In this document: in pieces, positions 26,223 to 38,409 of the stretch
How the letters are laid out: every line of letters begins with the position of its first letter
Numbering within the stretch: position 1 is the stretch's first letter
Assembly: GCA_036261885.1 (NCBI GenBank)
Contig: DATAJY010000012.1
Location: 143,458-207,457 of the forward strand
Direction: 5' to 3'
From: Thermoanaerobaculia bacterium
Lineage (GTDB): Bacteria > Acidobacteriota > Thermoanaerobaculia > Gp7-AA8
DNA: 64,000 bases
The notes under the pieces: generated by a model
The model's database searches: none
What the model saw: only the letters and a program-made list of their open reading frames with translations
What the model was told of the DNA's origin: nothing
Made by a program: the position numbers and the translations under genes

Positions 26223-27323
26223 TTACAGCAGCTTCACGACCCGGCTGGTGAGTCCCTCGTCACCGAGAACCACCGTCAGGTTCGCCTTTCCGGCAACCTT
26301 CTCGAGCACTTCCAGCTCCTTGAGCTTCATCAGCGTCGGAGAGGATTCGAGAATCTTTGCCGTATTGGCCTGCATGCGCATCGCCGCCGTTTCCTCGCGG
26401 CGCGTGATCAGCGATGCTTCCGCGGCCTTCTTTGCTTCCGTGACCTTGTTCATCAGATCCTTCATGTCGCCCGGCAGAATCACGTCCTTGACGCCCGCCG
26501 AGACGAGCGCCAGACCGAGCTCGATGGCGCGCGGTGCAATGCGCTCCGCGAGCTCACGCCCCAGTGCGTCTTTCGCCTGGAGCAGTGCGTCGAGCTCTTT
26601 TGCGCCGACCGCTTCCCGCAGCGCGAGCTGCGCGGCGCGGTACAGCGCCTGACCGGCACCGTCGACTTCCATCACGCTGCGCAGTGCATCCACAATGCGG
26701 TACGAAACCATGGCATTGAGGCGCAGCGTGACCTTGTCGGCGGTCATGATTTCCTGGCCGCTGATGTCGAGCACCTGCTCGCGCAGATCGACGGTCATCA
26801 GCTTCAATGTGCCGGTGCCCTTCCAGAACGCGTACGTGCCCGGGGCGAGCGTGGCCTGGAATGCGCCGTCGCGAAACCAGAGCCCGGCGTGACCCGGCTC
26901 GACATTGAGGATCTGCAGGTGATTCGCGGCGCGCGGCGACGCGAGAATGACCGCCAGATCCTCATGAACGAACTGCATGTTGCGTGCGTCGAGCACCTCG
27001 ACGCGCACCTGGTACTCGGTGGTCCAGAGCACGTACGTACCCGGCCCGACGATCGCATTGAAGCGCTCCTCGACCCAGACCACTGCACGCTCGTGATCGC
27101 GCAGCTGCAGCACGATCCCTTCATCGCCGAGCCGGCCGGAGCGCGCAATGCGCTCGAGCTGTTCGTGATGCAGCCAGGCGTTGTCCATCGAGACGACGTC
27201 GACACGCGTCTTGAAAAGCGGTGCGTAAATCCAGTGCGAGCCCGGCTTCAGGACGCCGGCGAACTCGCCGTCGCGAAACAGAAGACCGCGCGTATGCGGA
27301 CGAATATGGACGTGTCGAAACAT
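26223..27323 (-). CDS. SPFH/band-7 (slipin-like) domain protein
   Basis: 366 aa with a strong SD (GAAGGAGG). The SPFH core and C-terminal coiled coil (KDVILPGDMKDLMNKVTEAKKAAEASLITRREETAAMR) are present. No obvious TM segment. Confidence 0.85.
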   Translation of the reverse strand: MFRHVHIRPHTRGLLFRDGEFAGVLKPGSHWIYAPLFKTRVDVVSMDNAWLHHEQLERIARSGRLGDEGIVLQLRDHERAVVWVEERFNAIVGPGTYVLWTTEYQVRVEVLDARNMQFVHEDLAVILASPRAANHLQILNVEPGHAGLWFRDGAFQATLAPGTYAFWKGTGTLKLMTVDLREQVLDISGQEIMTADKVTLRLNAMVSYRIVDALRSVMEVDGAGQALYRAAQLALREAVGAKELDALLQAKDALGRELAERIAPRAIELGLALVSAGVKDVILPGDMKDLMNKVTEAKKAAEASLITRREETAAMRMQANTAKILESSPTLMKLKELEVLEKVAGKANLTVVLGDEGLTSRVVKLL

Positions 27324-27939: not shown

Positions 27940-28434
27940 ATGATTTTCGCCATGATTCGTAAATTCGCCGTGGTTCTGATCGCAATGCTGTACGCGGCCG
28001 CATTACACGCCGCGACCACTCTGCCGAAACCGAAGAACATCGTCACAGACGGTGCGGGCATATTGACGAACGAGGAGGTCGCGTCGCTGACGTCCGACCT
28101 CCAGGCATTACGAACGCGCGGGCTCGGGCAGGTGCTGATCTACATCGTGCCGGCCTTGCCGCCCGGCGAAACGATGGAGGAGGTGACGCTGCGCTCGGCG
28201 AATGCCTGGGGCGTCGGCGACCGGATGCGCGATGACGGCGTCGTGATCTTCGTCTTCATGAGCGATCGTAAGATCCGCATCGAGCTCGGACTCGGCGTGG
28301 AGAAGAAAATCGACGATGCCACCGCCGCCCGCATCATTCAGGAAAAGATGGTCCCGGCGTTCAAGCGAAGCGCGTACGCAGCGGGCCTGCACGACGCGGT
28401 CGTGGAAATCGGACGGCGATTGAGTGCGCCCTGA
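27940..28434 (+). CDS. TPM-domain (YgcG-like phosphatase fold) protein, secreted
   Basis: Signal peptide, then NIVTDGAGILTNEEVASL...DDGVVIFVFMSDRKIRIELGLGVEKKI...AFKRSAYAAGL, typical of the TPM domain. Start is ATG 27940 or 27952. Confidence 0.8.
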   Translation: MIFAMIRKFAVVLIAMLYAAALHAATTLPKPKNIVTDGAGILTNEEVASLTSDLQALRTRGLGQVLIYIVPALPPGETMEEVTLRSANAWGVGDRMRDDGVVIFVFMSDRKIRIELGLGVEKKIDDATAARIIQEKMVPAFKRSAYAAGLHDAVVEIGRRLSAP

Positions 28435-28480: not shown

Positions 28481-29212
28481 ATGACAGTCGCATTGGATGT
28501 CCCGGCACCCGTCCGCACGGTGGTGGACGATCTCGTTGCATCGGCGCGTGAATCGTTCGGCGATGCGCTGCGCTCGGTGATCCTTTATGGCTCCGCGGCC
28601 GAGGGGCGCCTGCGCGCCACGTCGGATGTCAATCTCCTCTTCATCCTGGCGGTCTTCGACTCGCGCGTCGATGCCTTCCGCGAGCCGTTCCGATTCGCGC
28701 AGGCGGCGGCGAACGTCAATGCGATGTTCCTTCTCGAAGACGAATTGACGGAAGCGGGGGAGGCGTTCGCGCAGAAATTCGCCGACATCGCCAATCGTCA
28801 CGTCGTGCTGCATGGCGCGGACGTCATTGGCCGGCTGTCGATTCCGCGGGCCGCGCTGGTGCGCCGCCTGCGACAGGTCCTGCTCAATCTCACGATCCGT
28901 TTGCGGGAGTTGTATGTCTCGCGGAGCCTGCGCGAGGAGCAGTGCGCCATCACGATGGCCGAGGCCGCCGGCCCGTTGCGGACATCCGCGTCGGCGATTC
29001 TGGAGCTCGAAGCGGGACGCAAGCTGCCGCCGAAGGAGGCGCTCGAACACGTGGTGCGCGAGCTCGACGACCGGTTCGCGGCGCTGCTGCCGCATCTTTC
29101 CGAGGCGCGCGAACAACGGGTGTTGCCGGCCGGAGAGGCCGCCCGGCTCCTGTTCACGACGCTCGAGATCGCGCGGGCGCTGCACGCGCGGGCCATGCGG
29201 ATCGCCGAATGA
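28481..29212 (+). CDS. Nucleotidyltransferase-domain protein (Pol-beta superfamily) with helical C-terminal domain
   Basis: 243 aa. The minimal NTase motif is LYGSAAEGRLRATSDVNLLFI (GS...D.N/D). The stop overlaps the next start (ATGA at 29209-29212). Confidence 0.7.
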   Translation: MTVALDVPAPVRTVVDDLVASARESFGDALRSVILYGSAAEGRLRATSDVNLLFILAVFDSRVDAFREPFRFAQAAANVNAMFLLEDELTEAGEAFAQKFADIANRHVVLHGADVIGRLSIPRAALVRRLRQVLLNLTIRLRELYVSRSLREEQCAITMAEAAGPLRTSASAILELEAGRKLPPKEALEHVVRELDDRFAALLPHLSEAREQRVLPAGEAARLLFTTLEIARALHARAMRIAE

Positions 29213-30099
29213 ATCCCTTCGATTTCTACGGCCCGCAGTTTCTCGTCTTCTATTTTCTGCTGACGATCTCCACGCTGCTCGTCATGGCGCTCGTGCGGCG
29301 GTTCATCGATCGCGCGGTGCCCGAAGCGGCGGATGCGAAACTGACGGACGCGTATGTCATCGCGCTGCTGCGCGGCGGCCGCAAGGAAATGGTGCGCACG
29401 ACGATCGTCTCGCTGCTGGATCGCGGATTGTTGGAGCAGACCGCCAACGGCAAGGTGCACACGAGCGGCGTCGGCAGCAGGATGCGCGCGCGCCGCGACA
29501 TCGAAGAGCGAATTCTCGAATACTGTCGCAGCGATCGCGACCTCGGCGATCTTCCGGACCAGAAGGAATTCGCGCACCTCTGCGCGCCGTACGAAGGGGA
29601 GTTGCAGAGGCTGGGCATGCTGCCGAGCGGCCCGCAGCGAGCCGCGCGTTACGCGCTCTTTCTCGTCGGCGGAGGATTTCTCGCCGCGGTCTCGGTCACC
29701 AAGATTCTGATCGCGCTCTCGCGCGGGCGCACGAACATCGCGTTTCTCGTCATCGTCACCGCCGCGGCGGTGTGGCTGGCGTCGCGCGTCGCCGCGCCAC
29801 GCCTCACCGCGAAAGGCAACGCGACCCTCGCCGAACTGCAGAATCTCTTCAAGGCGCTCAAGCTCCGCGCGAAAGAATTGAAGCCCGGCGGCGCGACGTC
29901 CGAGCTGGCGATGCTCACCGCGGTCTTCGGCGGCACGACCGTGATGACCCTCGGCAATTTCCCCGGCCTCAACGTCCTCTATCCGCGCGCGACGTCGACC
30001 GGCAGCAGCGGAAGCAGCTCCGGCAGTTCGTGTGGCAGTTCCTGCGGAAGCTCGTGCGGCGGTGGTTGCGGCGGCGGATGCGGAGGCTGCGGCTCGTGA
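29209..30099 (+). CDS. TIGR04222-like polytopic membrane protein with C-terminal Ser/Gly/Cys repeat tail
   Basis: Internal ATG 29209. N-terminus MNPFDFYGPQFLVFYFLL matches the family signature as I remember it. At least 4 hydrophobic segments. C-terminus: STGSSGSSSGSSCGSSCGSSCGGGCGGGCGGCGS. Confidence 0.75.
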   Translation: MNPFDFYGPQFLVFYFLLTISTLLVMALVRRFIDRAVPEAADAKLTDAYVIALLRGGRKEMVRTTIVSLLDRGLLEQTANGKVHTSGVGSRMRARRDIEERILEYCRSDRDLGDLPDQKEFAHLCAPYEGELQRLGMLPSGPQRAARYALFLVGGGFLAAVSVTKILIALSRGRTNIAFLVIVTAAAVWLASRVAAPRLTAKGNATLAELQNLFKALKLRAKELKPGGATSELAMLTAVFGGTTVMTLGNFPGLNVLYPRATSTGSSGSSSGSSCGSSCGSSCGGGCGGGCGGCGS

Positions 30100-30109
30100 G
30101 GCAGCAGCG

Positions 30110-31141
30110 ATGAAGTTCGGCCTCGGCTGGCGCGCGCCGATCGGCGCGGCGATCTTCGCGAACCTCGAACAGATCGACGTCGTCGAGATCATGGCCGAGG
30201 ATTTCTTCGCGGCGACGAAGGCCGAGAAGCGCGCGCTGCGTTTTCTCGGCGAGCACGTGACGCTCGTGCTGCACGCGACGTGTCTCGGGCTCGCATCGAC
30301 TGAATGCGTCGACCGGAAGAAGCTCGATGCCGTGGCGCGTGTGGTCGGCTGGCTCGAGCCCGAGGTCTGGTCCGAGCATCTCGCGTTCGTGCGCGGCGGC
30401 GGGATCGAAGTCGGACATCTCGCGGCGCCGCCGCGCAATGACGCCACGCTCGCGGGGCTCGTGCGCAACATCGAGCTGGCGACGCGCGTCGCCGGCGCGA
30501 GACCGCTGCTCGAAAACGTCGCCTCGCTCGTCGAGCCGCCGCACTGCGCGTACGACGAAGGAGCCTGGCTGCACGCGGTGCTGGAGGCGACGCGATGCGA
30601 CCTCCTGCTCGATCTGCACAACGTGCATGCGAACGGCGTGAACTTCGGCTTTTCCGCGCGCGACGTGGTCACGTCGCTGCCGATGCATCGCGTGAAGGCG
30701 GTGCATCTCGCCGGCGGAAAGCGGATCGAGCGCAATCGCCTGCTCGACGATCACAGGCACGCCGTGCCGGACGAGGTGTTCGCGCTGCTCGCGCACGTCC
30801 CCGCCGAAGACGCCTTCGTGATCCTCGAGCGCGATGGCGAGTATCCGGCGTTCGACGGACTGCTCGCGGAACTGGCGCGCGCCCGGGCGGTGCCGCGCGT
30901 GCGCACGGCGCATGCGCTCGAGCGGACGAAGCGTGCGGTCGCGGATACGCCGGAGGTCATTGCGCGACTGGCGCAGATTTACGTCGATCCGGATGCGCGC
31001 GAACGCTTTCTCGCGAATCCGGAGTTCGCGATCGATCGGGAGGATCTGCTGCTCGCCGCGCGAAGCTTCGAGCGCAAGCGCATGGACGTGTCATCCCGAG
31101 CGGAGCGCGAAGCGCGAAGTCGAGGGATCCCCAGTCGATAG
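30110..31141 (+). CDS. DUF692 / multinuclear non-heme iron oxidase (MNIO, MbnB-like) family protein with C-terminal extension
   Basis: ATG 30110, 10 nt after the upstream stop. Motifs LHATCLGLAS, WSEHLAF, LENVAS, LLDLHNVHAN, VHLAGG and LLDDHRHAV follow the DUF692 TIM-barrel metal-ligand pattern. About 80 extra C-terminal residues. Confidence 0.85.
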   Translation: MKFGLGWRAPIGAAIFANLEQIDVVEIMAEDFFAATKAEKRALRFLGEHVTLVLHATCLGLASTECVDRKKLDAVARVVGWLEPEVWSEHLAFVRGGGIEVGHLAAPPRNDATLAGLVRNIELATRVAGARPLLENVASLVEPPHCAYDEGAWLHAVLEATRCDLLLDLHNVHANGVNFGFSARDVVTSLPMHRVKAVHLAGGKRIERNRLLDDHRHAVPDEVFALLAHVPAEDAFVILERDGEYPAFDGLLAELARARAVPRVRTAHALERTKRAVADTPEVIARLAQIYVDPDARERFLANPEFAIDREDLLLAARSFERKRMDVSSRAEREARSRGIPSR

Positions 31142-31262: not shown

Positions 31263-32276
31263 TTAAGCCTGCGTTCCCTCGATAAACAACACGAACTCCG
31301 AGCCGAACGCCATCGACGGCGTGAGCGCGCCCTTCAGCTCCGATTGCAGCACGCGCTCGACCGCGGCCAGCGCGGACAACATCGTGAAGTGATAGCCCTC
31401 GGCGACGGACATGGTCAGCGACACCTCGTCGTTGTTCGCGTTGCGCGCGCGGCCCCACAACTCCACGCGCGCGCTCGCCCGCGTCTCGGCCGACGGCCCG
31501 GCCGTCTTCGACGCCCAGCGCTGGGCGATCTTCTGAACCGGTTTGAACTTCAGCAGCGGGAGCAGCGGTTTGATGCGCTTCAGCTGTTTGAGTGCACCGC
31601 GTGACTGCGATGAGTACACGCGAATGTTCGGAATCTTCGTCGAGCGATACGCGGTGCTGATGTCGCCCCACGGGATGGTCATCGAAATGCGCGGTCCCGA
31701 TGCATAAGGAATCTCGCGCACGTCGAACATCTGCGGCACGCGGCGGATCTTTCCGTTCTCACGAATGGCGCCGCCGTGCGGCATTCCCTCGAGCATCGTC
31801 TTGAGCGTGCCGCGGCTGACGCCGCTCTTCGACGAGAACGCGAGCCACAGCTCCGTCGCATCAGGCATGCGCTTGTGCAGCATCGCCGCGAGACAGTCGG
31901 TCGGCACGACGTCGAAGCCGACGCCGGGGATGAGGGCCACGCCGCGCGCGACCGCGTCGTCATGTCTGCGGAACACCGACTCGAACACCACGATCTCACC
32001 GGTGATGTCGAGGTAATGCACGCCGGCCGCGAGACAGGCATTCACCATCGGTGCGGACGTGTGCAGGAACGGCCCTGCGCAATGCAGGACGAGCTGCACT
32101 CCGGAAAGATCGGGCCGGGTCAGATCGAAGGCGCGCCACTCGCAGCCGAGCTCGCGCGCCAGCGGCTCGATCTTCGCGGCGTCGCGACCTGCCAGAATCG
32201 GCCGGTCGCCGCGGCGCACCGCCTCGCGCGCAATCAACTCGCCGGTATACCCGTTCGCGCCATACAGAAGCCACAT
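31263..32276 (-). CDS. Saccharopine-dehydrogenase-like NAD(P)-binding protein
   Basis: Start ATG 32276. MWLLYGANGYTGELIAREAVRRGDRPILAGRD is a Rossmann GxxGxxG motif. 337 aa. Confidence 0.75.
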   Translation of the reverse strand: MWLLYGANGYTGELIAREAVRRGDRPILAGRDAAKIEPLARELGCEWRAFDLTRPDLSGVQLVLHCAGPFLHTSAPMVNACLAAGVHYLDITGEIVVFESVFRRHDDAVARGVALIPGVGFDVVPTDCLAAMLHKRMPDATELWLAFSSKSGVSRGTLKTMLEGMPHGGAIRENGKIRRVPQMFDVREIPYASGPRISMTIPWGDISTAYRSTKIPNIRVYSSQSRGALKQLKRIKPLLPLLKFKPVQKIAQRWASKTAGPSAETRASARVELWGRARNANNDEVSLTMSVAEGYHFTMLSALAAVERVLQSELKGALTPSMAFGSEFVLFIEGTQA

Positions 32277-32319
32277 GGCGGAGGAGTGTACGCGAGGGAG
32301 GCGTAGACTGAGTGCCTCG

Positions 32320-33858
32320 ATGAAATTCGAATCGCAGATCACGGAGATCACCTCCGCGTGCGCGAAGCTCGATCGCGCGGCCGCGGGAAACGCGAGCGAA
32401 TCGTTTGCGAAGGAGATCCGCGCGACGGGCGCGACGTTTCCTTCCTCGACCGCTTCGCCCGTGATTCAGGCGCTGATCCGCAAACGCTGGTTCACCGAAG
32501 CCTTGTGCGTGGCCGAGGCGGTGCTCGAGAGCGGACAAGGCTCGGCCAGTGTGAAGCTCGATTATGCGCAGGCGCTCATCGACAGTGGCCGTCTGACCGC
32601 GGCGCTTCCTCTTCTGCAGCAGTTGCTCACGACCGCGGTGCGCCGCTCGCGCGTGGAGCAGGCCGCGCGCGGCAGCATCGGGCGCATCTACAAACAGCTT
32701 TACGTCAATGGTGCGGGCGAGCCCGAGCTGCGGGCCGATCGCATTCTCCGCTCGTTCAATGCGTACTTCGATGCGTACGTCGAGAGCCCGCTGCTGCACT
32801 GGCACGGCATCAATGCGCTGGCGGTGTTCGCGCGTGCGGATCGCGACGGCATTCGCATCAACGCGACTCCGCCCGATGCGCGCGTGCTGCTCGCGGCGGC
32901 GGAACAATCGGACTCGCTCTGGTCGCACGCGATCGCCGGTGAGGCAGCGATTGCACTCGGCGATACGGAGCTCGCGTACCGGCACTACAAGGCTTACGTG
33001 AATTCGAATGACGAACGCGCCGATGCGTTCGAGATTGCGAGCTCGCTGCGCCAGCTCGTGGAGGTGTGGGAGCTCACCAGCGAGCACGATCCCGGTGCGC
33101 GGATTCTGCCGCTCCTGCACGGAGCGGTGTTGCGCAAGCAGGGCGGCCTGCTCGAGCTGCACGGCCACAGCGTGCGGACGGAGCTGGAGAAAACGTTCGG
33201 CAGCGACGCCGCGGTTTCGTTCCAGTGGTACCGGCAGGGGCTCGAGCGTTGCCTCTCGGTCTGCTGCGTGCGCCACGAGCGCGGCGACGCGTGGGGCACC
33301 GGCTTCATCGTGCGCGGAACCGATTTCGGCTTCGCCGACGAGTTGATGATGCTGACCAACGAGCACGTGCTCAGCGAAACGTCGTGTGACGCACTGCGTC
33401 CCGGAAAGGCGTATGCGACGTTCGAGGCGTTGCCGGAGCGACCGAGCGCGCGCTGCGTCGAGATCGTCTGGAGCAGTCGCGCGCTCGATGCCACGCTGGC
33501 GCGCTTCGATCCGCCGCTCACCGGCGTCACGCCGATCGCGATCGAACGCGAGGTCGAACTGCCGGAAGGGGACGACGACACCGCGCGCGTCTATCTGATC
33601 GGCCATCCGCACGGCGGCGGACTCGCGTTTTCACTGCACGACAATCTCGTCACCGGCTGGGACGACGAGCGCGTGCACTATCGCGCGCCGACGGAGCATG
33701 GCAGCTCGGGCAGCCCGGTGTTCGACGATCAGTGGCGGCTCATCGCGCTGCATCACGGCGGCGGACGTCTGCGACGGCTCGACGACAGCGGCGAGTTTTA
33801 CGAGGCCAACGAAGGATTTCGCCTCGACCGCATCTGCGCCGCCGCGACCGCGCGATAA
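32320..33858 (+). CDS. TPR-like sensor domain fused to trypsin-like serine protease
   Basis: Internal ATG 32320, 512 aa. The helical-repeat N-terminal half includes GSIGRIYKQLY. The C-terminal protease carries His (TNEHV), Asp (LDATLARF) and Ser (TEHGSSGSPVF) motifs. Confidence 0.75.
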   Translation: MKFESQITEITSACAKLDRAAAGNASESFAKEIRATGATFPSSTASPVIQALIRKRWFTEALCVAEAVLESGQGSASVKLDYAQALIDSGRLTAALPLLQQLLTTAVRRSRVEQAARGSIGRIYKQLYVNGAGEPELRADRILRSFNAYFDAYVESPLLHWHGINALAVFARADRDGIRINATPPDARVLLAAAEQSDSLWSHAIAGEAAIALGDTELAYRHYKAYVNSNDERADAFEIASSLRQLVEVWELTSEHDPGARILPLLHGAVLRKQGGLLELHGHSVRTELEKTFGSDAAVSFQWYRQGLERCLSVCCVRHERGDAWGTGFIVRGTDFGFADELMMLTNEHVLSETSCDALRPGKAYATFEALPERPSARCVEIVWSSRALDATLARFDPPLTGVTPIAIEREVELPEGDDDTARVYLIGHPHGGGLAFSLHDNLVTGWDDERVHYRAPTEHGSSGSPVFDDQWRLIALHHGGGRLRRLDDSGEFYEANEGFRLDRICAAATAR

Positions 33859-33867
33859 TCGACGCCC

Positions 33868-34602
33868 ATGCCGCGCATCACCCGCGAAACCCAGCGCATG
33901 CTCGCCATCGCCTTCGTCGTGGCGCTGGTCGTATATCTCGTTCCGTTCACCCGCTTCGTGCTCTCCGCGCTGGTGACGCTCTTTCACGAATTCGGTCATG
34001 CGGTGATGGGCTGGATTCTCGGATATCCGTCGCTGCCCGCATTCGATCTCGTGTACGGCGGCGGGTTCACGCATCAGGGGACGTTCAAGCTGCCGATCGC
34101 CATCCTCGTCGCCGGCATCTTCGGCTACATCGCCTGGCTCAATCGCGACAATCGCAGAGGGCTGATCGTGATCGGCATCGTCGCCGCGGTGTGGCTGCTG
34201 TTCGTGACGCGCGAATGGCGTCGCGAGCTGGCGATCGCCTCCGCGGGCCATCTCGCCGAATTCGTGCTCGCGGGCGTGATGCTCTACAAATCGATCACCG
34301 GCGAAGGGTGGCGCAATCCCGACGTCGAACGTCCCCTCGGCGCGTTCATCGCCTTCTTCGTCCAGATCCACTCCACGCATTTCGCCTGGAAGCTGATCCA
34401 CGACACCGGCTTCCTCGAGTGGTACCGCGAAGGCAAAGGCGGCGCGATCATGAACGACCTCGAAGTCGTCGCCCTCGACCTCCAGATCTGGCTCGGCTGG
34501 CAACCCCAGATCGAAGGCGTAGCGAAGGGGCTGTTGTTCTTCTCCCTCGTCCCCCTGGTGATCGCCGTTTATCGCGCCTCGCGGGTGGAGATTGAGAATT
34601 GA
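33868..34602 (+). CDS. Membrane protein with HExxH motif (M50-like metalloprotease candidate)
   Basis: 244 aa, about 6 TM segments. LFHEFGHAVMG lies in the first helix region. Starts 10 nt after the protease gene. The stop codon lies inside the heptamer repeat arm. Confidence 0.6.
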   Translation: MPRITRETQRMLAIAFVVALVVYLVPFTRFVLSALVTLFHEFGHAVMGWILGYPSLPAFDLVYGGGFTHQGTFKLPIAILVAGIFGYIAWLNRDNRRGLIVIGIVAAVWLLFVTREWRRELAIASAGHLAEFVLAGVMLYKSITGEGWRNPDVERPLGAFIAFFVQIHSTHFAWKLIHDTGFLEWYREGKGGAIMNDLEVVALDLQIWLGWQPQIEGVAKGLLFFSLVPLVIAVYRASRVEIEN

Positions 34603-34699
34603 AAATTGAAAATTGAAAATTGAAATCACTCATCGCCAGTGCAAAACGCGTCGCTCTTGCGACACCTGATTTCAATTTTCAATTTTCAATTTTCAATTC
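34591..34699. repeat. Heptamer-armed hairpin element E1 (ATTGAAA x5 / TTTCAAT x4)
   Basis: The left arm 34596-34626 and right arm 34669-34699 are perfectly complementary (31 bp). The 42-nt core contains a GTCGC-TCTT-GCGAC mini-hairpin. It lies between convergent stop codons at 34602 and 34742. Confidence 0.9.
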
Positions 34700-34709
34700 A
34701 ACAAATCCC

Positions 34710-34737
34710 CAATCCTCAATCCTCAATCCTCAATCCC
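34710..34737. repeat. Tandem heptamer CAATCCT x3 plus one variant (CAATCCC)
   Basis: CAATCCTCAATCCTCAATCCTCAATCCC, directly after E1 and 5 nt before the kinase stop codon. Confidence 0.9.
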
Positions 34738-34741
34738 CGTT

Positions 34742-36190
34742 TCACCCTCCCCGAAACCACCTCTTCACCCTCTCCCACCGCCCCGGCTTCTTCTCCGCTT
34801 CCTTCTTCTCGGGCGCCGGCTCGTCGCTCTCGCGTTTCGTTTTTCTCGCGGTGCGCTCCACTTCGACTTCCGTTTTCGGGGTTTGTTCGTCGAGCAGCTT
34901 CTGTGTCGCGTCGCGTTCGGTCCGGGCGACGAGGCTTTGCGGATGGCGTTTGAGGAAATCGTCATAGAGCGCGAGCGATTCTTCGAACTTGCCGTCGCGC
35001 GTCAGTGCCCGCGCGCGTTCGAGCTCCGACTTCTTTGCCTGGTCGAGCCGCACCTGTTCGGGCGTGATCACCGCGACCGGCTTCTGCTTCGAGATGCCGC
35101 TGCGCAGTGCGACCACCGCCGTGGCCAGTCCGCCGACGAGCAGGAGCACGATCAACCAGAACGCGATCGCCGGCACGTCGCGATTGAAGCGGCGGCGCGG
35201 CGTCGCTTCCCCGGGGATCTCGTCGATGAGCGTCGGCAGCGGCGTGCCGGCATCGTCGGCGTGCGGGATCATCACCGTCTCCGCGTCGCCGAACATCGTG
35301 TTGTCGACATCGCGCGGCGCGCGTCCGCTTTCCAGATCCGCGAGCGCATCGGCCGCCGCGGCGTAACGCTCTTCCGGCGTTTTCGCGAGCAGCTTCTGGA
35401 CGACGCGCGACACCGCTTGCGGCACCGCGGGATTCACCTCATGCACCGGTGAGGGGACGAGATTGACGACGTTGTAGAGGATGCCGCTGAGCTCCGGGGA
35501 GGCGAACGGCTTGATGCCGGTGAGCAGCTCGTACATCACCACGCCGGTGGAAAAGAGGTCGCTGCGCGGGGACACCGGCGTCGTGCGTACCTGCTCCGGC
35601 GACATGTAGTTCGGCGTGCCGACGAGCGTGCGCGTCGTGGTGAGGCTCGAATGCAGCGGACGCGCGACGCCGAAATCGGCGATCTTGGCCTGCCCCTCGG
35701 AGGTGAGCAGGATGTTCGCCGGCTTGATGTCGCGATGGATGATTCCTTTCGCGTGCGCGTACGCCAGCCCGCGCAGCACGTCGCACGCGATCGACATCGC
35801 TTCGACGAGCGGCAGCGGGCGCGTCCGGCGCAGCCGCGCCAGCAGCGACTCGCCGTCGATGTACTCGGTGGCGAAGTACGAGACCACCTCGCCGTCATAG
35901 CCGACGTCGTACAACGTGACGATGTTCGGATGCTGCATCGAGCCGCAGAGCTCGGCCTCGCGTTGCAACCGCTTGTAGAACTCACGCTCGTCGATGTCGT
36001 CTTCGAAACGATGCTCGAGGTGCACCGTCTTCAGCGCGACACGGCGGCCGATGCGGCGATGGCGGGCGAGATAGACCTTGCCGATCGATCCCTTGCCGAG
36101 GAACGACTCGACGTCGTAGTCGCCGTAGCGTGCGCCGTCTTGTGAAGCTTGTTCCGTCACGTCCTCGGGTAGAGTAAGCGAAGTCGTCAT
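34742..36190 (-). CDS. Ser/Thr protein kinase with single TM and C-terminal extracytoplasmic or charged tail
   Basis: Start ATG 36190. GKGSIGKVYLA...VALK, HRDIKPANILL, DFG and TPNYMSPEQ motifs. TM segment IAFWLIVLLLVGGLATAVVAL. Confidence 0.9.
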   Translation of the reverse strand: MTTSLTLPEDVTEQASQDGARYGDYDVESFLGKGSIGKVYLARHRRIGRRVALKTVHLEHRFEDDIDEREFYKRLQREAELCGSMQHPNIVTLYDVGYDGEVVSYFATEYIDGESLLARLRRTRPLPLVEAMSIACDVLRGLAYAHAKGIIHRDIKPANILLTSEGQAKIADFGVARPLHSSLTTTRTLVGTPNYMSPEQVRTTPVSPRSDLFSTGVVMYELLTGIKPFASPELSGILYNVVNLVPSPVHEVNPAVPQAVSRVVQKLLAKTPEERYAAAADALADLESGRAPRDVDNTMFGDAETVMIPHADDAGTPLPTLIDEIPGEATPRRRFNRDVPAIAFWLIVLLLVGGLATAVVALRSGISKQKPVAVITPEQVRLDQAKKSELERARALTRDGKFEESLALYDDFLKRHPQSLVARTERDATQKLLDEQTPKTEVEVERTARKTKRESDEPAPEKKEAEKKPGRWERVKRWFRGG

Positions 36191-36201
36191 CCGGGAGCCC
36201 C

Positions 36202-38409
36202 ATGCGATCGCTCGTTCCAGTCCACATTCTTGCCAGTGTCCTGTCCGCTTTCCTCGTTCCGTTTGCCGCCGCGCAGGAGCCGATGTGCGGCACGAGCGCC
36301 GATCACGATCGTTATCTCGAAGCGCTGCACGCGCGTCCGCGCGGCGGTGTTTCCGCGCTCGCGCAGAACACGTCGATGCTGCGCGACGGCGCGTTCTATC
36401 TGCCGGCCGATGAGTTGATCCTGCCGGGCTATCACCGTTTCGATCTCGAAGGGACGTCGCTGGTGTTCGAGCCGCTGCCCAGCGGCTATGCGATGCGTCG
36501 CGAAACGGCGCCGCCAATCCTCTCCGCTCCGGCGCTTCGCGACTTCGATCAGACGCAGCCGGACGACGCCTGGTTCGTCGCGTACGACCTGCCGTTCGCG
36601 TTTCCGATCTTCGGCCGCAACGTGACGCGGATCTACATCACGAAATTCAACGAGATCCGCTTTGATCCTCCCGTCGCGCAAACGAATGCGGTGCAGTTCG
36701 GTGCAGCAGAGGTCGCGGCGACCCCAGAGCCGGTCGTCTCGCCGCTCGTCCTGACGACGAGCAAACCGCGGCTGGTCGTAAATCCCGAAGTCTCCGTCGA
36801 AGCGACGGCGAATTCCGTTCGCGTGCAATGGGTGAGCGCGACGCCGGTGGAAGTGGATGCCGAGGAGACGCTGCGGCGGCGCGTCGAGTATGTGGTGCAG
36901 GCGGAGTTGCGTGGCGACGGCACGATCGTGCTGGCCTATCCGGCTGCATCGCCACTGCTGTGGGGCGCGCCGTTGATCTCGGCCGGAACGATCGGCCGCA
37001 ATCCGATCGCCGGTCTGGCCGATCCGATCGATGTGATCTCGACGTCTGTGCCGGTGGAACTGCGGCCGATGCTCGACATCACCGGCGTCGAGACCAATCG
37101 CATCAATGACGCGGATGTGTTTTCGATTCGCGCCACGCTCGCGGCGACGCCGGATGTGACGAAGCTCGGTGAAGGCGAGTCATTTCGCTTTCTCTTCGTC
37201 GCGGAGGATGACAGCGGCTACGTCGACATCGACGCGAGCGGTGTGGTCGTGACCGGGTTCGGTGCGCCGAAAGGGGTGGCCAGCGCGATCTCCGCGAAGC
37301 TCGTGAACAATACGATCGAGCTGTTCGGCTTGCAGCGCGACGCGGGATCGTCCTCGATCGTTTCGGTGCGCGTGCTCTCGTTCCTGCGGCCGCGTCCCGT
37401 CGTCATCGATGCGACGGGCACGTTGCAGATGCGGCTCGATGCCGCGCCGAAGCGGACGTCGCTCGACCTTTCTGCCGTTGCGAATGGAACCGAGCTGACG
37501 CTGCCGATCGCCGAGACGTTCGAGCTCGCGCCGCTCGATGTGAATGCGGTGTGGGATCGGCTGCAGTACGAGCAGAAGCTCAGCGACTACGACGTTGACG
37601 GCGTGGCGATCTATCAGTCGTTCTATACCGACATCATCTTCTACGCCGGTGCGTACTCGACGCGCGGCAATCCGGCGGTCGATGGCATTGCGCCGGGGCA
37701 GCCGCCGTTCCGCCAGCGCGATCCGCGTTTTCCCGCGCTGCTGCACATGAATCAGCTGACGTACAACTACAGTGCCGCGCCGGAGACGGCCTCGAAGGTG
37801 CTGCTGCACGAGTTCGGGCATCGCTGGCTCTACTTCATCTCCATCGCCGAGGATGGTGTCGCGACGCGGTCGTTGAATCCGGTGAGCTCGCATCCCGCGG
37901 CGTACGTGCACACGCCGTCGGCGTTTCCGGTGTACGGCGAGAACGAGTCGTCGGTGATGGGCGGCGCGTATTTCGCGCAGCAGGGCGACGGCGCGTACAG
38001 GGCGCACGCCGCGAACATGGGCTACAGCTGGACCGATCTCTATCTGATGGGCCTCGCCGCGCCGGGTGAAGTGCCGAACTGGTTCTATCTCGCGGGGACG
38101 ACGTTGCCGCTGGAGTACTGGCCCGCCGAAGGCGCGGTCGTGACCAACCCCGCGCGCAAAGAGGTGGGCATCGAACAGGTTCTCGCCGCGCAGGGCTCCC
38201 GTTTTCCATCGCACGAGCTCGGCCAGCGCAAGTTCCGCCTGCTCTTCGTGCTCGTCACCGAGCCGGGCACGAATCCCACACCGGCCGAGATCGCGAAGAT
38301 GAATGAGTGGCGCGCCCTGGTCGAACGCAATTTCGCATTGGCGACGGGCGGGAGAGGGAAGTTGGCGACGGAGTTCGTCAGGCCGGCGAAAACGCGGGCG
38401 GCGCGATAG
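36202..38409 (+). CDS. Secreted large protein with HExxH zinc-metalloprotease motif
   Basis: 735 aa. Signal peptide MRSLVPVHILASVLSAFLVPFAAA. VLLHEFGHRWLYF lies near residue 535. The family assignment is not resolved. Confidence 0.65.
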   Translation: MRSLVPVHILASVLSAFLVPFAAAQEPMCGTSADHDRYLEALHARPRGGVSALAQNTSMLRDGAFYLPADELILPGYHRFDLEGTSLVFEPLPSGYAMRRETAPPILSAPALRDFDQTQPDDAWFVAYDLPFAFPIFGRNVTRIYITKFNEIRFDPPVAQTNAVQFGAAEVAATPEPVVSPLVLTTSKPRLVVNPEVSVEATANSVRVQWVSATPVEVDAEETLRRRVEYVVQAELRGDGTIVLAYPAASPLLWGAPLISAGTIGRNPIAGLADPIDVISTSVPVELRPMLDITGVETNRINDADVFSIRATLAATPDVTKLGEGESFRFLFVAEDDSGYVDIDASGVVVTGFGAPKGVASAISAKLVNNTIELFGLQRDAGSSSIVSVRVLSFLRPRPVVIDATGTLQMRLDAAPKRTSLDLSAVANGTELTLPIAETFELAPLDVNAVWDRLQYEQKLSDYDVDGVAIYQSFYTDIIFYAGAYSTRGNPAVDGIAPGQPPFRQRDPRFPALLHMNQLTYNYSAAPETASKVLLHEFGHRWLYFISIAEDGVATRSLNPVSSHPAAYVHTPSAFPVYGENESSVMGGAYFAQQGDGAYRAHAANMGYSWTDLYLMGLAAPGEVPNWFYLAGTTLPLEYWPAEGAVVTNPARKEVGIEQVLAAQGSRFPSHELGQRKFRLLFVLVTEPGTNPTPAEIAKMNEWRALVERNFALATGGRGKLATEFVRPAKTRAAR

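Follow-up and report, generated by a model that had tools for sequence, protein, structure and literature searches.

Does a multinuclear non-heme iron oxidase (MNIO) whose gene directly follows that of a polytopic membrane protein with a Cys-rich end act on this protein, and if so, with which partners? The question is raised by three + strand open reading frames (ORFs) at positions 28481-31141 of the window analyzed here, a 64,000-nucleotide stretch of a Thermoanaerobaculia bacterium (GenBank assembly GCA_036261885.1, contig DATAJY010000012.1) with about 65% G+C, whose closest relatives are metagenome-assembled genomes (MAGs) of Thermoanaerobaculia (Acidobacteriota). The ORFs encode a protein with nucleotidyltransferase (NTase) fold, a TIGR04222 membrane protein and an MNIO (DUF692). 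MNIOs are among the largest enzyme families for peptides that ribosomes synthesize and that are modified after translation (RiPPs), and Cys-derived thiooxazoles underlie bacterial copper buffering. We found that the three proteins are inherited together with a fourth module, a helical domain of apparent NHLP/LigA-clan type. As for the function of the cassette, we judge it about even whether the MNIO and the NHLP-like partner oxidize Cys-Gly repeats in the tail of the membrane protein to thiooxazole-type ligands, with the NTase-like protein, which has an AadA fold and a D-x-N motif, as a clade-specific accessory.

The three window genes form a compact cassette of 2.7 kb and are translationally coupled; the fourth module is fused to the MNIO. 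As the earlier note on this DNA had described, the genes are tightly packed into one unit. The stop codon of the NTase-like gene (28481-29212, 243 aa) overlaps the start codon of the membrane-protein gene (29209-30099, 296 aa) in the ATGA at 29209-29212. The stop codon of the latter (30097-30099) is separated from the MNIO start codon at 30110 by a 10-nt spacer, ggcagcagcg, and is spanned by a Shine-Dalgarno-like GAGG (30098-30101). A scan for promoters and terminators inside the cassette gave nothing convincing, and no further conserved Cys-containing small ORF was found between or beside the cassette genes.

Co-inheritance of four modules

In order to assess conservation of the gene order, genomes were scanned with the NTase alignment as seed, which yielded 38 loci. 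Hidden Markov models were built from these loci, and only loci with enough flanking DNA were counted; the choice of seeds biases some of the counts. TIGR04222 followed the NTase-like gene in 33/34 loci, the MNIO was present in 32/32, and the NHLP-like module in 31/31. The co-occurrence of the three families, which the earlier note had left to a gene-neighborhood check, is thus borne out. The sole exception (L036, 6001-6611) is a frameshifted or truncated NTase remnant with neither TIGR04222 nor MNIO downstream, apparently a decayed cassette. The loci stem from Thermoanaerobaculia, Bryobacterales, Solibacteraceae, Sulfotelmatobacter, Acidiferrales and Methylomirabilota/Rokubacteria, and from MAGs of Deltaproteobacteria and Bdellovibrionales. 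The gene junctions in these relatives are mostly 4-nt overlaps, the flanking genes vary from locus to locus, and the loci range from 51 to 67% G+C.

The reverse test, a metagenome scan seeded with the membrane protein, identified the MNIO in 31/35 loci, the NHLP-like module in 26/27, and the NTase-like gene in 25/32. The seven loci without the NTase-like gene are those with the most distant membrane proteins, so that this gene is specific for a large clade, and the core of TIGR04222 protein, MNIO and module is broader. Taken in both directions, the scans show that the NTase-like protein, the TIGR04222 protein, the MNIO and the NHLP-like module are inherited together.

Two loci carry the NTase-TIGR04222 pair without an MNIO. 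In one of them (L091:693-2764), the end of the membrane-protein gene is overlapped by the gene for a homologue of radical S-adenosylmethionine (SAM)/SPASM peptide maturases, with the ACGX-system radical SAM enzyme (TIGR04340) and SbtM as nearest models. In the other (L059:3244-7711), a TrkA-type K+ channel gene follows, and then, 1.7 kb downstream, an SbtM-type radical SAM enzyme (TIGR04082, 487 bits, above cutoff). Maturases as in ACGX-repeat/SPASM (TIGR04340) and SbtM (TIGR04082) systems were seen beside the pair in these two loci only, with direct adjacency only in L091, and the window itself contains none. The [S/G]-C-G-x repeats of the tail resemble the ACGX repeats of ACGX peptides. A swap of Cys maturases beside the same tail is what would be expected if the tail were the substrate. 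The two cases are anecdotal, but they fit, as a hint, a tail that is open to different Cys-directed maturases and an NTase-like protein whose link is to the membrane protein and not to the MNIO.

The membrane protein, its tail and the MNIO

The membrane protein scores 86.2 bits with the NCBIfam model TIGR04222 (cutoff 43), in line with the family likeness, the several transmembrane (TM) helices and the Cys/Gly/Ser tail that the earlier note had recognized. It starts with MNPFDFYGPQFLVFYF and ends with ...SSCGSSCGSSCGGGCGGGCGGCGS. The AlphaFold2 model (predicted local distance difference test, pLDDT, 84.5) and hydropathy place three strong TM helices at residues 8-35 (TM1), 141-171 (TM2) and 177-195 (TM3), with an invariant RGRTN loop between TM2 and TM3. 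The soluble domain between TM1 and TM2 (about residues 40-135) is modeled with a helix-helix-beta-hairpin pattern and further helices (residues 48-134). It may be called winged-helix-like, a label that is based only on this predicted pattern; no significant match to the domain was found in Pfam or the PDB. A Foldseek search of the PDB with the complete model did not identify relatives either (best E 1.1), and tblastn against PLSDB gave no match to plasmid-borne relatives.

Downstream of TM3 follow a Lys/Arg-rich amphipathic stretch, a weakly hydrophobic segment (residues 231-247) and the tail. Averaged over the family, the Kyte-Doolittle profile reaches 2.2-2.45 in the three TM helices, but only 1.49 in this fourth segment. 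For net charge, we obtained +4.3 downstream of TM3, +1.0 downstream of the fourth segment, where about two Lys/Arg residues are found, and -0.4 for the tail. The latter could lie in the cytoplasm, provided that the fourth segment is not membrane-spanning, or in the periplasm, as predicted for TIGR04222 members elsewhere (Antoine et al., 2025).

The tail itself (residues 263-296, STGSSGSSSGSSCGSSCGSSCGGGCGGGCGGCGS, positions 29995-30096) is uncharged and predicted to be disordered (pLDDT <50), and contains six Cys residues, each followed by Gly. Its motif, ...SC-GSSC-GGGC-GGGCGGCG[GS]-COOH, is nearly invariant in the NTase-seeded loci and in alignment A3. In loci retrieved via the NTase-like protein and not via the tail, the tail is conserved through to its final residue. 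All conserved Cys residues precede a Gly, and the Ser positions are less conserved than Cys and Gly. In one locus (L016:5093-5986), a second TIGR04222 paralogue directly upstream of the NTase-like gene has a different, Ala-containing tail with the end ...GACDGGGGCGCGAAAGCGAAAGCGAG.

Our full-text literature search identified one relevant work on TIGR04222 proteins (Antoine, Leprevost ... Jacob-Dubuisson, Microb Genom 2025, PMC12452194, also available as a preprint; here Antoine et al., 2025). In this survey, TIGR04222 proteins account for about 11% of MNIO neighborhoods and, among Cys-containing proteins that lack a signal peptide and whose gene precedes that of an MNIO, for 40%. On the basis of genomics, the Ser/Gly/Cys regions at the C-termini of TIGR04222 proteins were proposed to be likely MNIO substrates (Antoine et al., 2025). 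The TIGR04222-MNIO clusters of the survey contain no DUF2063 genes, at least 10% of them encode a "PME-type 2" protein, and many appear to be without a partner gene (PMC12452194). The present cassette shares with these clusters both core families, the position of TIGR04222 before the MNIO, the Ser/Gly/Cys tail as proposed substrate, the absence of a DUF2063 (PME-type 1) partner, and an MNIO near the bufferin-type enzymes. It differs in that the survey covers mostly Actinomycetota, and in the conserved NTase-fold gene and the NHLP-clan partner, fused or adjacent. The hyperconserved tail, which the earlier note had put forward as MNIO substrate, is the most plausible candidate; the novelty implied there does not hold, because the idea was already published by Antoine et al. 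(2025). What is new here are the conserved NTase-like gene and the NHLP/LigA-like module.

The catalytic TIM-barrel of the MNIO (residues 1-262 of 343 aa, positions 30110-30895) matches Pfam PF05114 (MbnB_TglH_ChrH) with 210.3 bits (E 4e-62, cutoff 25, residues 3-261). The DUF692 assignment of the earlier note is therefore sound, and its motifs WSEHLAF, LENVAS, DLHNVHAN, VHLAGG and DDHRH are all present. The ligand-type residues H55, H90, E135, D168, N171, H199, D214, H217 and E240 are invariant in 33 MNIO orthologues and align with those of the PDB relatives 3bww, TglH (8hci) and MbnB (7dz9); we take them to map onto the MbnB ligands. The nearest NCBIfam models are BufB (NF050167, 172.5 bits, cutoff 310) and HvfB (NF003818, 124.7 bits, cutoff 360), so that the MNIO is by its sequence a relative of BufB and HvfB, not an equivalog.

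According to PMC13097082, all characterized close MNIO relatives act on peptide Cys, and characterized MNIO-PME1 systems install 5-thiooxazoles on Cys residues, often in EGKCG repeats, with copper-type metal binding. The nearest models, Cys-Gly repeats that resemble EGKCG and the same expected chemistry connect our cassette to bufferins/captophorins and oxazolin (BufABC, HvfABC, FonABC). Unlike in those systems, the candidate substrate is not a small Sec-exported peptide, but a 296-aa polytopic membrane protein without signal peptide. Profile searches of the cassette and its neighbors did not identify DUF2063 or DoxX matches, which sets the cassette apart from biosynthetic gene clusters of the bufferin/captophorin type.

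The partner domain and the NTase-like protein

The MNIO extends 81 residues beyond the Pfam domain. The extension contains a helical domain of putative NHLP/LigA-clan type (residues ~279-324, DTPEVIARLAQIYVDPDARERFLANPEFAIDREDLLLAARSFERKR, positions 30944-31081), followed by a basic C-terminal end (MDVSSRAEREARSRGIPSR) that, with the stop codon, occupies positions 31082-31141 and is variable and not conserved among relatives. The conserved part of the extension reads LAxLYxDxxxRxxFLxxP...IDRxxLxLAARSFxxKR. Among related loci, the domain is fused to the MNIO in 25, and encoded by a separate, coupled ORF of 63-110 aa in 43. Fusion is found in Thermoanaerobaculia; elsewhere the domain has its own ORF, in many loci with an ATG that overlaps the MNIO stop codon. 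The fused version in the window is shortened and lacks a middle helix-turn of most relatives. This pattern of fusion and splitting provides a Rosetta-stone argument for a physical partnership with the MNIO. The earlier note had seen no partner for the MNIO, and had placed the NTase in the partner position. Both statements have to be given up, since the MNIO carries the C-terminal domain that most relatives encode as a separate gene, and the NTase-like protein is an additional upstream component that distant TIGR04222-MNIO cassettes lack.

The module was compared with models of the NHLP clan (NF038399, TIGR03793, PF14407 and PF07746, LigA), and its matches to known families are weak, but mutually consistent. 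The model NF038399 ("Os1348 family NHLP clan protein") was matched by 15/16 module members (best E 3.8e-9, 36.5 bits, cutoff 40), Pfam Frankia_peptide by 9/16 and LigA by 8/16, all below gathering threshold; the NCBIfam model "NHLP-related RiPP peptide" was also among the matches. In the PDB, profile matches were nitrile hydratase alpha (E 4.7e-4) and SonA, a RiPP precursor with a LigA domain (E 2e-3). A partner of DUF2063/MbnC/TglI type was considered and rejected, as there was no match to Pfam DUF2063, and neither the partner domain nor longer partners retrieved NGO1945 (3dee) or TglI (8hi7) at E<=10 in profile and sequence searches of the PDB. All conserved positions of the module lie inside the helical domain. 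It has no conserved Cys, and no conserved core follows it; the tail after the domain can be as short as 0-5 residues (median 4.5 in NTase-containing loci). Given its fusion to the enzyme and the lack of a conserved core behind it, we read the domain as a partner subunit of the MNIO and not as a precursor.

LigA of the LigAB extradiol dioxygenase offers a structural precedent for such a subunit: it is a small helical module of a non-heme iron enzyme, present as a separate subunit in LigA/LigB and as a C-terminal fusion in gallate dioxygenase. A fused/split dichotomy is also found in borosins. Unlike LigA and NHLP leaders such as SonA, the module scores below curated thresholds, comes without a core peptide, and has a TIM-barrel MNIO as partner enzyme.

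The free-standing family has at least 987 members, mostly of 66-122 aa, with variable basic C-terminal tails that are often rich in Trp and Arg. Many of the small partners P0241-P0360 (for example P0241, P0275, P0284, P0310 and P0355) have basic Trp/Arg/Phe-rich ends such as RSRWWNWFRNRYK, PWWSRRWWSRG or ARWLRWLGRAR. These ends look like amphipathic membrane-interface anchors; the fused version in the window has no such end. The PME-type 2 proteins of Antoine et al. (2025) have an N-terminal helical domain with structural similarity to NGO1945 or TglI, and their gene follows that of the MNIO. The gene position of the module fits, again without a profile match to 3dee/8hi7, and the module may be the shortest form of their "PME-type 2" or "adjamnio-V". 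In distant loci that lack the NTase-like gene or in which its presence could not be determined (L087:5789-6307, L090:5979-6647, L072 and L077), the protein encoded after the MNIO has 172-211 aa. It begins with the NHLP-like domain and ends in an unassigned half, an arrangement that may correspond to the "PME-type 2" proteins of Antoine et al. (2025). Two loci without the NTase-like gene have a complete partner ORF, which encodes 172 and 211 aa, compared to a median of 81 aa in loci with the NTase-like gene. With n=2, this relation is only a lead.

The upstream protein has two domains, an NTase domain of Pol-beta type at the N-terminus and a helical one at the C-terminus. Sequence matches are below threshold (Pfam Polbeta, E 0.008, 16.7 bits, cutoff 26.9; ANT/MntA, about 20 bits). 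However, Foldseek aligned the AlphaFold2 model (pLDDT 91.6) with AadA/ANT(3'')(9) structures (7uy4, 5lpa and 6fzb; E 1.8e-8, TM-score 0.63-0.66), with ANT(9) and kanamycin nucleotidyltransferase (KNTase) over both domains, and with Hailong HalB and MntA over the NTase core. At the level of the modeled fold, the earlier call of a Pol-beta-type NTase is right; the canonical catalytic motif that it would imply is missing. The protein shares with AadA/ANT(3'')(9), ANT(9) and KNTase the two-domain fold, a length of about 250 aa, the GS motif, the first Asp and Glu88. It differs from AadA-type enzymes by only 12-17% identity, by replacement of the second Asp with Asn, and by its place in an operon with a membrane protein and an MNIO instead of as a resistance gene.

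The active-site motif reads G37-S38 ... D49-V-N51 ... E88. In the alignment to AadA models, D49 and N51 occupy the positions of AadA D47 and D49, and E88 is equivalent to AadA Glu87. A test for the pattern hG[GS]x9-13 D-h-[DE]-h confirmed that the D-x-[DE] carboxylate pair is absent, while the third carboxylate, E88, is kept. N51 is present in 36/36 orthologues, of which the most divergent have 38% identity, and G37-S38, D49, E88, K99, D102 and several Arg residues are likewise invariant. Homologues are numerous (a search of 90% clusters gave 1488 at E<=1e-3, and clustering at 50% left 256 representatives with E<=1e-30), and a D-x-N regular expression matched 129/150 of the best 50%-cluster representatives; among the remaining ones, visual inspection identified SD[VI]N wherever the region is present. 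In two-metal NTases, the second metal-ligand residue is normally indispensable. The occurrence of D-x-N throughout the family therefore argues against ordinary nucleotidyl transfer, which should not be assumed, and makes a scaffold or chaperone role or an atypical chemistry more likely. The conservation of the other active-site residues still suggests a bound ligand.

Two familiar roles of such proteins were rejected. Aminoglycoside resistance is not supported by the scores (16-22 bits, compared to cutoffs of 193-560 for NCBIfam ANT(3'')/ANT(9)), and the genomic context differs. As for anti-phage defense, PADLOC returned a generic minimal-NTase match for this protein alone (PDC-S09, 37 bits) and nothing for the other proteins. 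The text and supplements of PMC12452194, the only paper that treats TIGR04222 together with MNIOs, contain no mention of nucleotidyltransferases, and our literature search found no paper that links these to MNIOs. Together with the gene order counts, this agrees with the earlier view of the NTase as an undescribed, conserved member of the cassette.

Explanations of the cassette and its surroundings

According to the explanation given at the outset, the MNIO, with its intact set of iron ligands and closest to bufferin/HvfB maturases, would oxidize Cys in the C-G repeats of the tail. The products would be 5-thiooxazole (or oxazolone-thioamide) heterocycles with a mass change of -4 Da per Cys, and the tail would become an array of 6-8 ligands for soft (copper-type) metals, tethered to the membrane. 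As partner subunit of the MNIO, the NHLP-like domain would either dock the enzyme on the substrate or membrane, or cover the active site in the way in which LigA caps LigB. A third factor, specific for a clade and linked to the membrane protein, would be the NTase-like protein. It would more likely be a scaffold or tail chaperone that binds nucleotides, or an enzyme of atypical chemistry such as Ser O-nucleotidylylation, than a standard two-metal NTase. We count in favor of tail modification the similarity of the Cys-Gly pattern to the EGKCG repeats (PMC13097082) and the independent substrate hypothesis of Antoine et al. (2025) for subsets of TIGR04222 proteins.

A number of observations weigh against this explanation. 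No post-translational modification of any TIGR04222 protein was found in the literature, and all relatives of the cassette are MAG or metagenome contigs. The metagenome seeds contained the tail motif itself, so that tail conservation in that set is biased, and a clean swap of the maturase was seen in one locus only (L091). Hydropathy and charge counts do not settle on which side of the membrane the tail lies, and a periplasmic tail would have to be modified before translocation. The chemistry of the MNIO may differ from that of BufB and HvfB, since it scores below both equivalog cutoffs. The NHLP-clan assignment of the module is drawn from sub-threshold scores. As 7/32 membrane-protein-seeded loci lack the NTase-like protein, the pairing of TIGR04222 with the MNIO does not in general depend on it, and the function of this protein cannot be derived from a motif that departs from D-x-[DE].

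The same cassette can be explained in other ways. Recognition may be inverted, so that the leader-like NHLP domain on the MNIO docks on the TM1-TM2 domain of the substrate, a domain taken here to be cytoplasmic and winged-helix-like. The D-x-N AadA-fold protein would in this case be an obligate third component that replaces the RiPP recognition element half of conventional MNIO partners, and serves as a nucleotide-dependent chaperone or a Ser-nucleotidylylase of the tail. The combination of short partners with the NTase-like protein and long partners without it (n=2) is a hint in this direction, and we regard inverted recognition as quite unlikely overall. Alternatively, the NHLP-clan module could itself be the true RiPP precursor, modified in cis where fused and in trans where split, as in borosins, and the TIGR04222 protein would then have a role in export, anchoring or immunity. 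Domains of the NHLP/LigA type are classic leaders of RiPPs, SonA is among the best PDB matches, Frankia_peptide and "NHLP-related RiPP peptide" models are matched, and the gene, of 63-122 aa, directly follows that of the MNIO. However, a precursor should end in a core, and here the ends are variable, basic and nearly absent in many members, conserved Cys residues are lacking, and it is the tail of the membrane protein that is hyperconserved by contrast. We see only a slim prospect for the module as precursor. It is also conceivable that the tail stays unmodified and binds metal through its thiolates or takes part in Fe/Cu handling, that the MNIO acts on an unannotated peptide or a small molecule, and that the linkage reflects metal delivery or shared physiology. 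Consistent with this possibility, one third of the genomes with TIGR04222 have no MNIO genes, more than a quarter of TIGR04222 proteins lack a C-proximal Cys (PMC12452194), and we found TIGR04222-only loci with a short CGGCG end (L098, L099 and L101). Within the clade, however, the MNIO is adjacent in 32/32 loci with overlapping stop and start codons, the gene neighborhood offers no other conserved small Cys-containing ORF as substrate, and the close MNIO relatives with characterized function all modify peptide Cys (PMC13097082), so that an unmodified tail appears improbable to us.

A further possibility concerns the NTase-like protein, which may not be a scaffold, but an active tailoring enzyme that nucleotidylylates Ser hydroxyls of the tail or its C-terminus before or after the MNIO acts. 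The AadA/KNTase-type fold belongs to O-nucleotidylyltransferases, most active-site residues are invariant, the tail is rich in Ser, and the protein is kept with the membrane protein even where a radical SAM enzyme replaces the MNIO. On the other hand, the second metal ligand is Asn in all 36 orthologues and essentially all 150 representatives, the tail Ser residues are less conserved than Cys and Gly, and cassettes without the NTase-like gene have similar Ser-rich tails. We consider such an activity unlikely, albeit worth keeping in mind. Finally, the adjacency might be fortuitous, or the tail a meaningless low-complexity sequence, because GGC/TGC repeats arise easily in a genome of 65% G+C. 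The chance of this is negligible. The gene order is kept across phyla, in loci of 51-67% G+C and between unrelated flanks, and both the motif and the exact end of the tail are conserved, so that the tail and synteny counts effectively refute it.

The 2025 survey left open how TIGR04222 proteins are modified where many clusters seemed to have no partner. The cassette offers two conserved candidates to fill this gap, the NHLP/LigA-like domain and the AadA-fold protein with its altered metal site, and its size of 2.7 kb allows direct cloning and testing. If the tail is modified, this would be the first case of such chemistry on a full-size membrane protein, and would provide soil Acidobacteria with a membrane-fixed metal-binding array. 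If it is not, the tight four-gene linkage still defines an uncharacterized module that is widespread in Acidobacteriota and Methylomirabilota.

The surroundings of the cassette appear to be local. A gene for a TPM-domain protein with signal-like N-terminus (PF04536, E 1.9e-29; 27940-28434, +) lies 46 nt upstream of the NTase-like gene. We considered it as a cassette member and rejected it, as no TPM homologue was found in any of 101 related loci. Other neighbors encode an SPFH/Band 7 protein (26223-27323, -), a saccharopine-dehydrogenase-like NAD(P) protein (31263-32351, -) and a protein with TPR-S and trypsin-like peptidase domains (32314-33858, +), none of them conserved beside the cassette elsewhere. 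Further downstream, at 34594-34735, a large inverted repeat is built from heptamer tandems, (ATTGAAA)x4, a spacer of about 37 nt and (TTTCAAT)x4, followed by (CAATCCT)x4. The genes on either side of it converge (33868-34602, +; 34742-36517, -, Ser/Thr kinase), and the repeat could be a terminator or a REP-like element.

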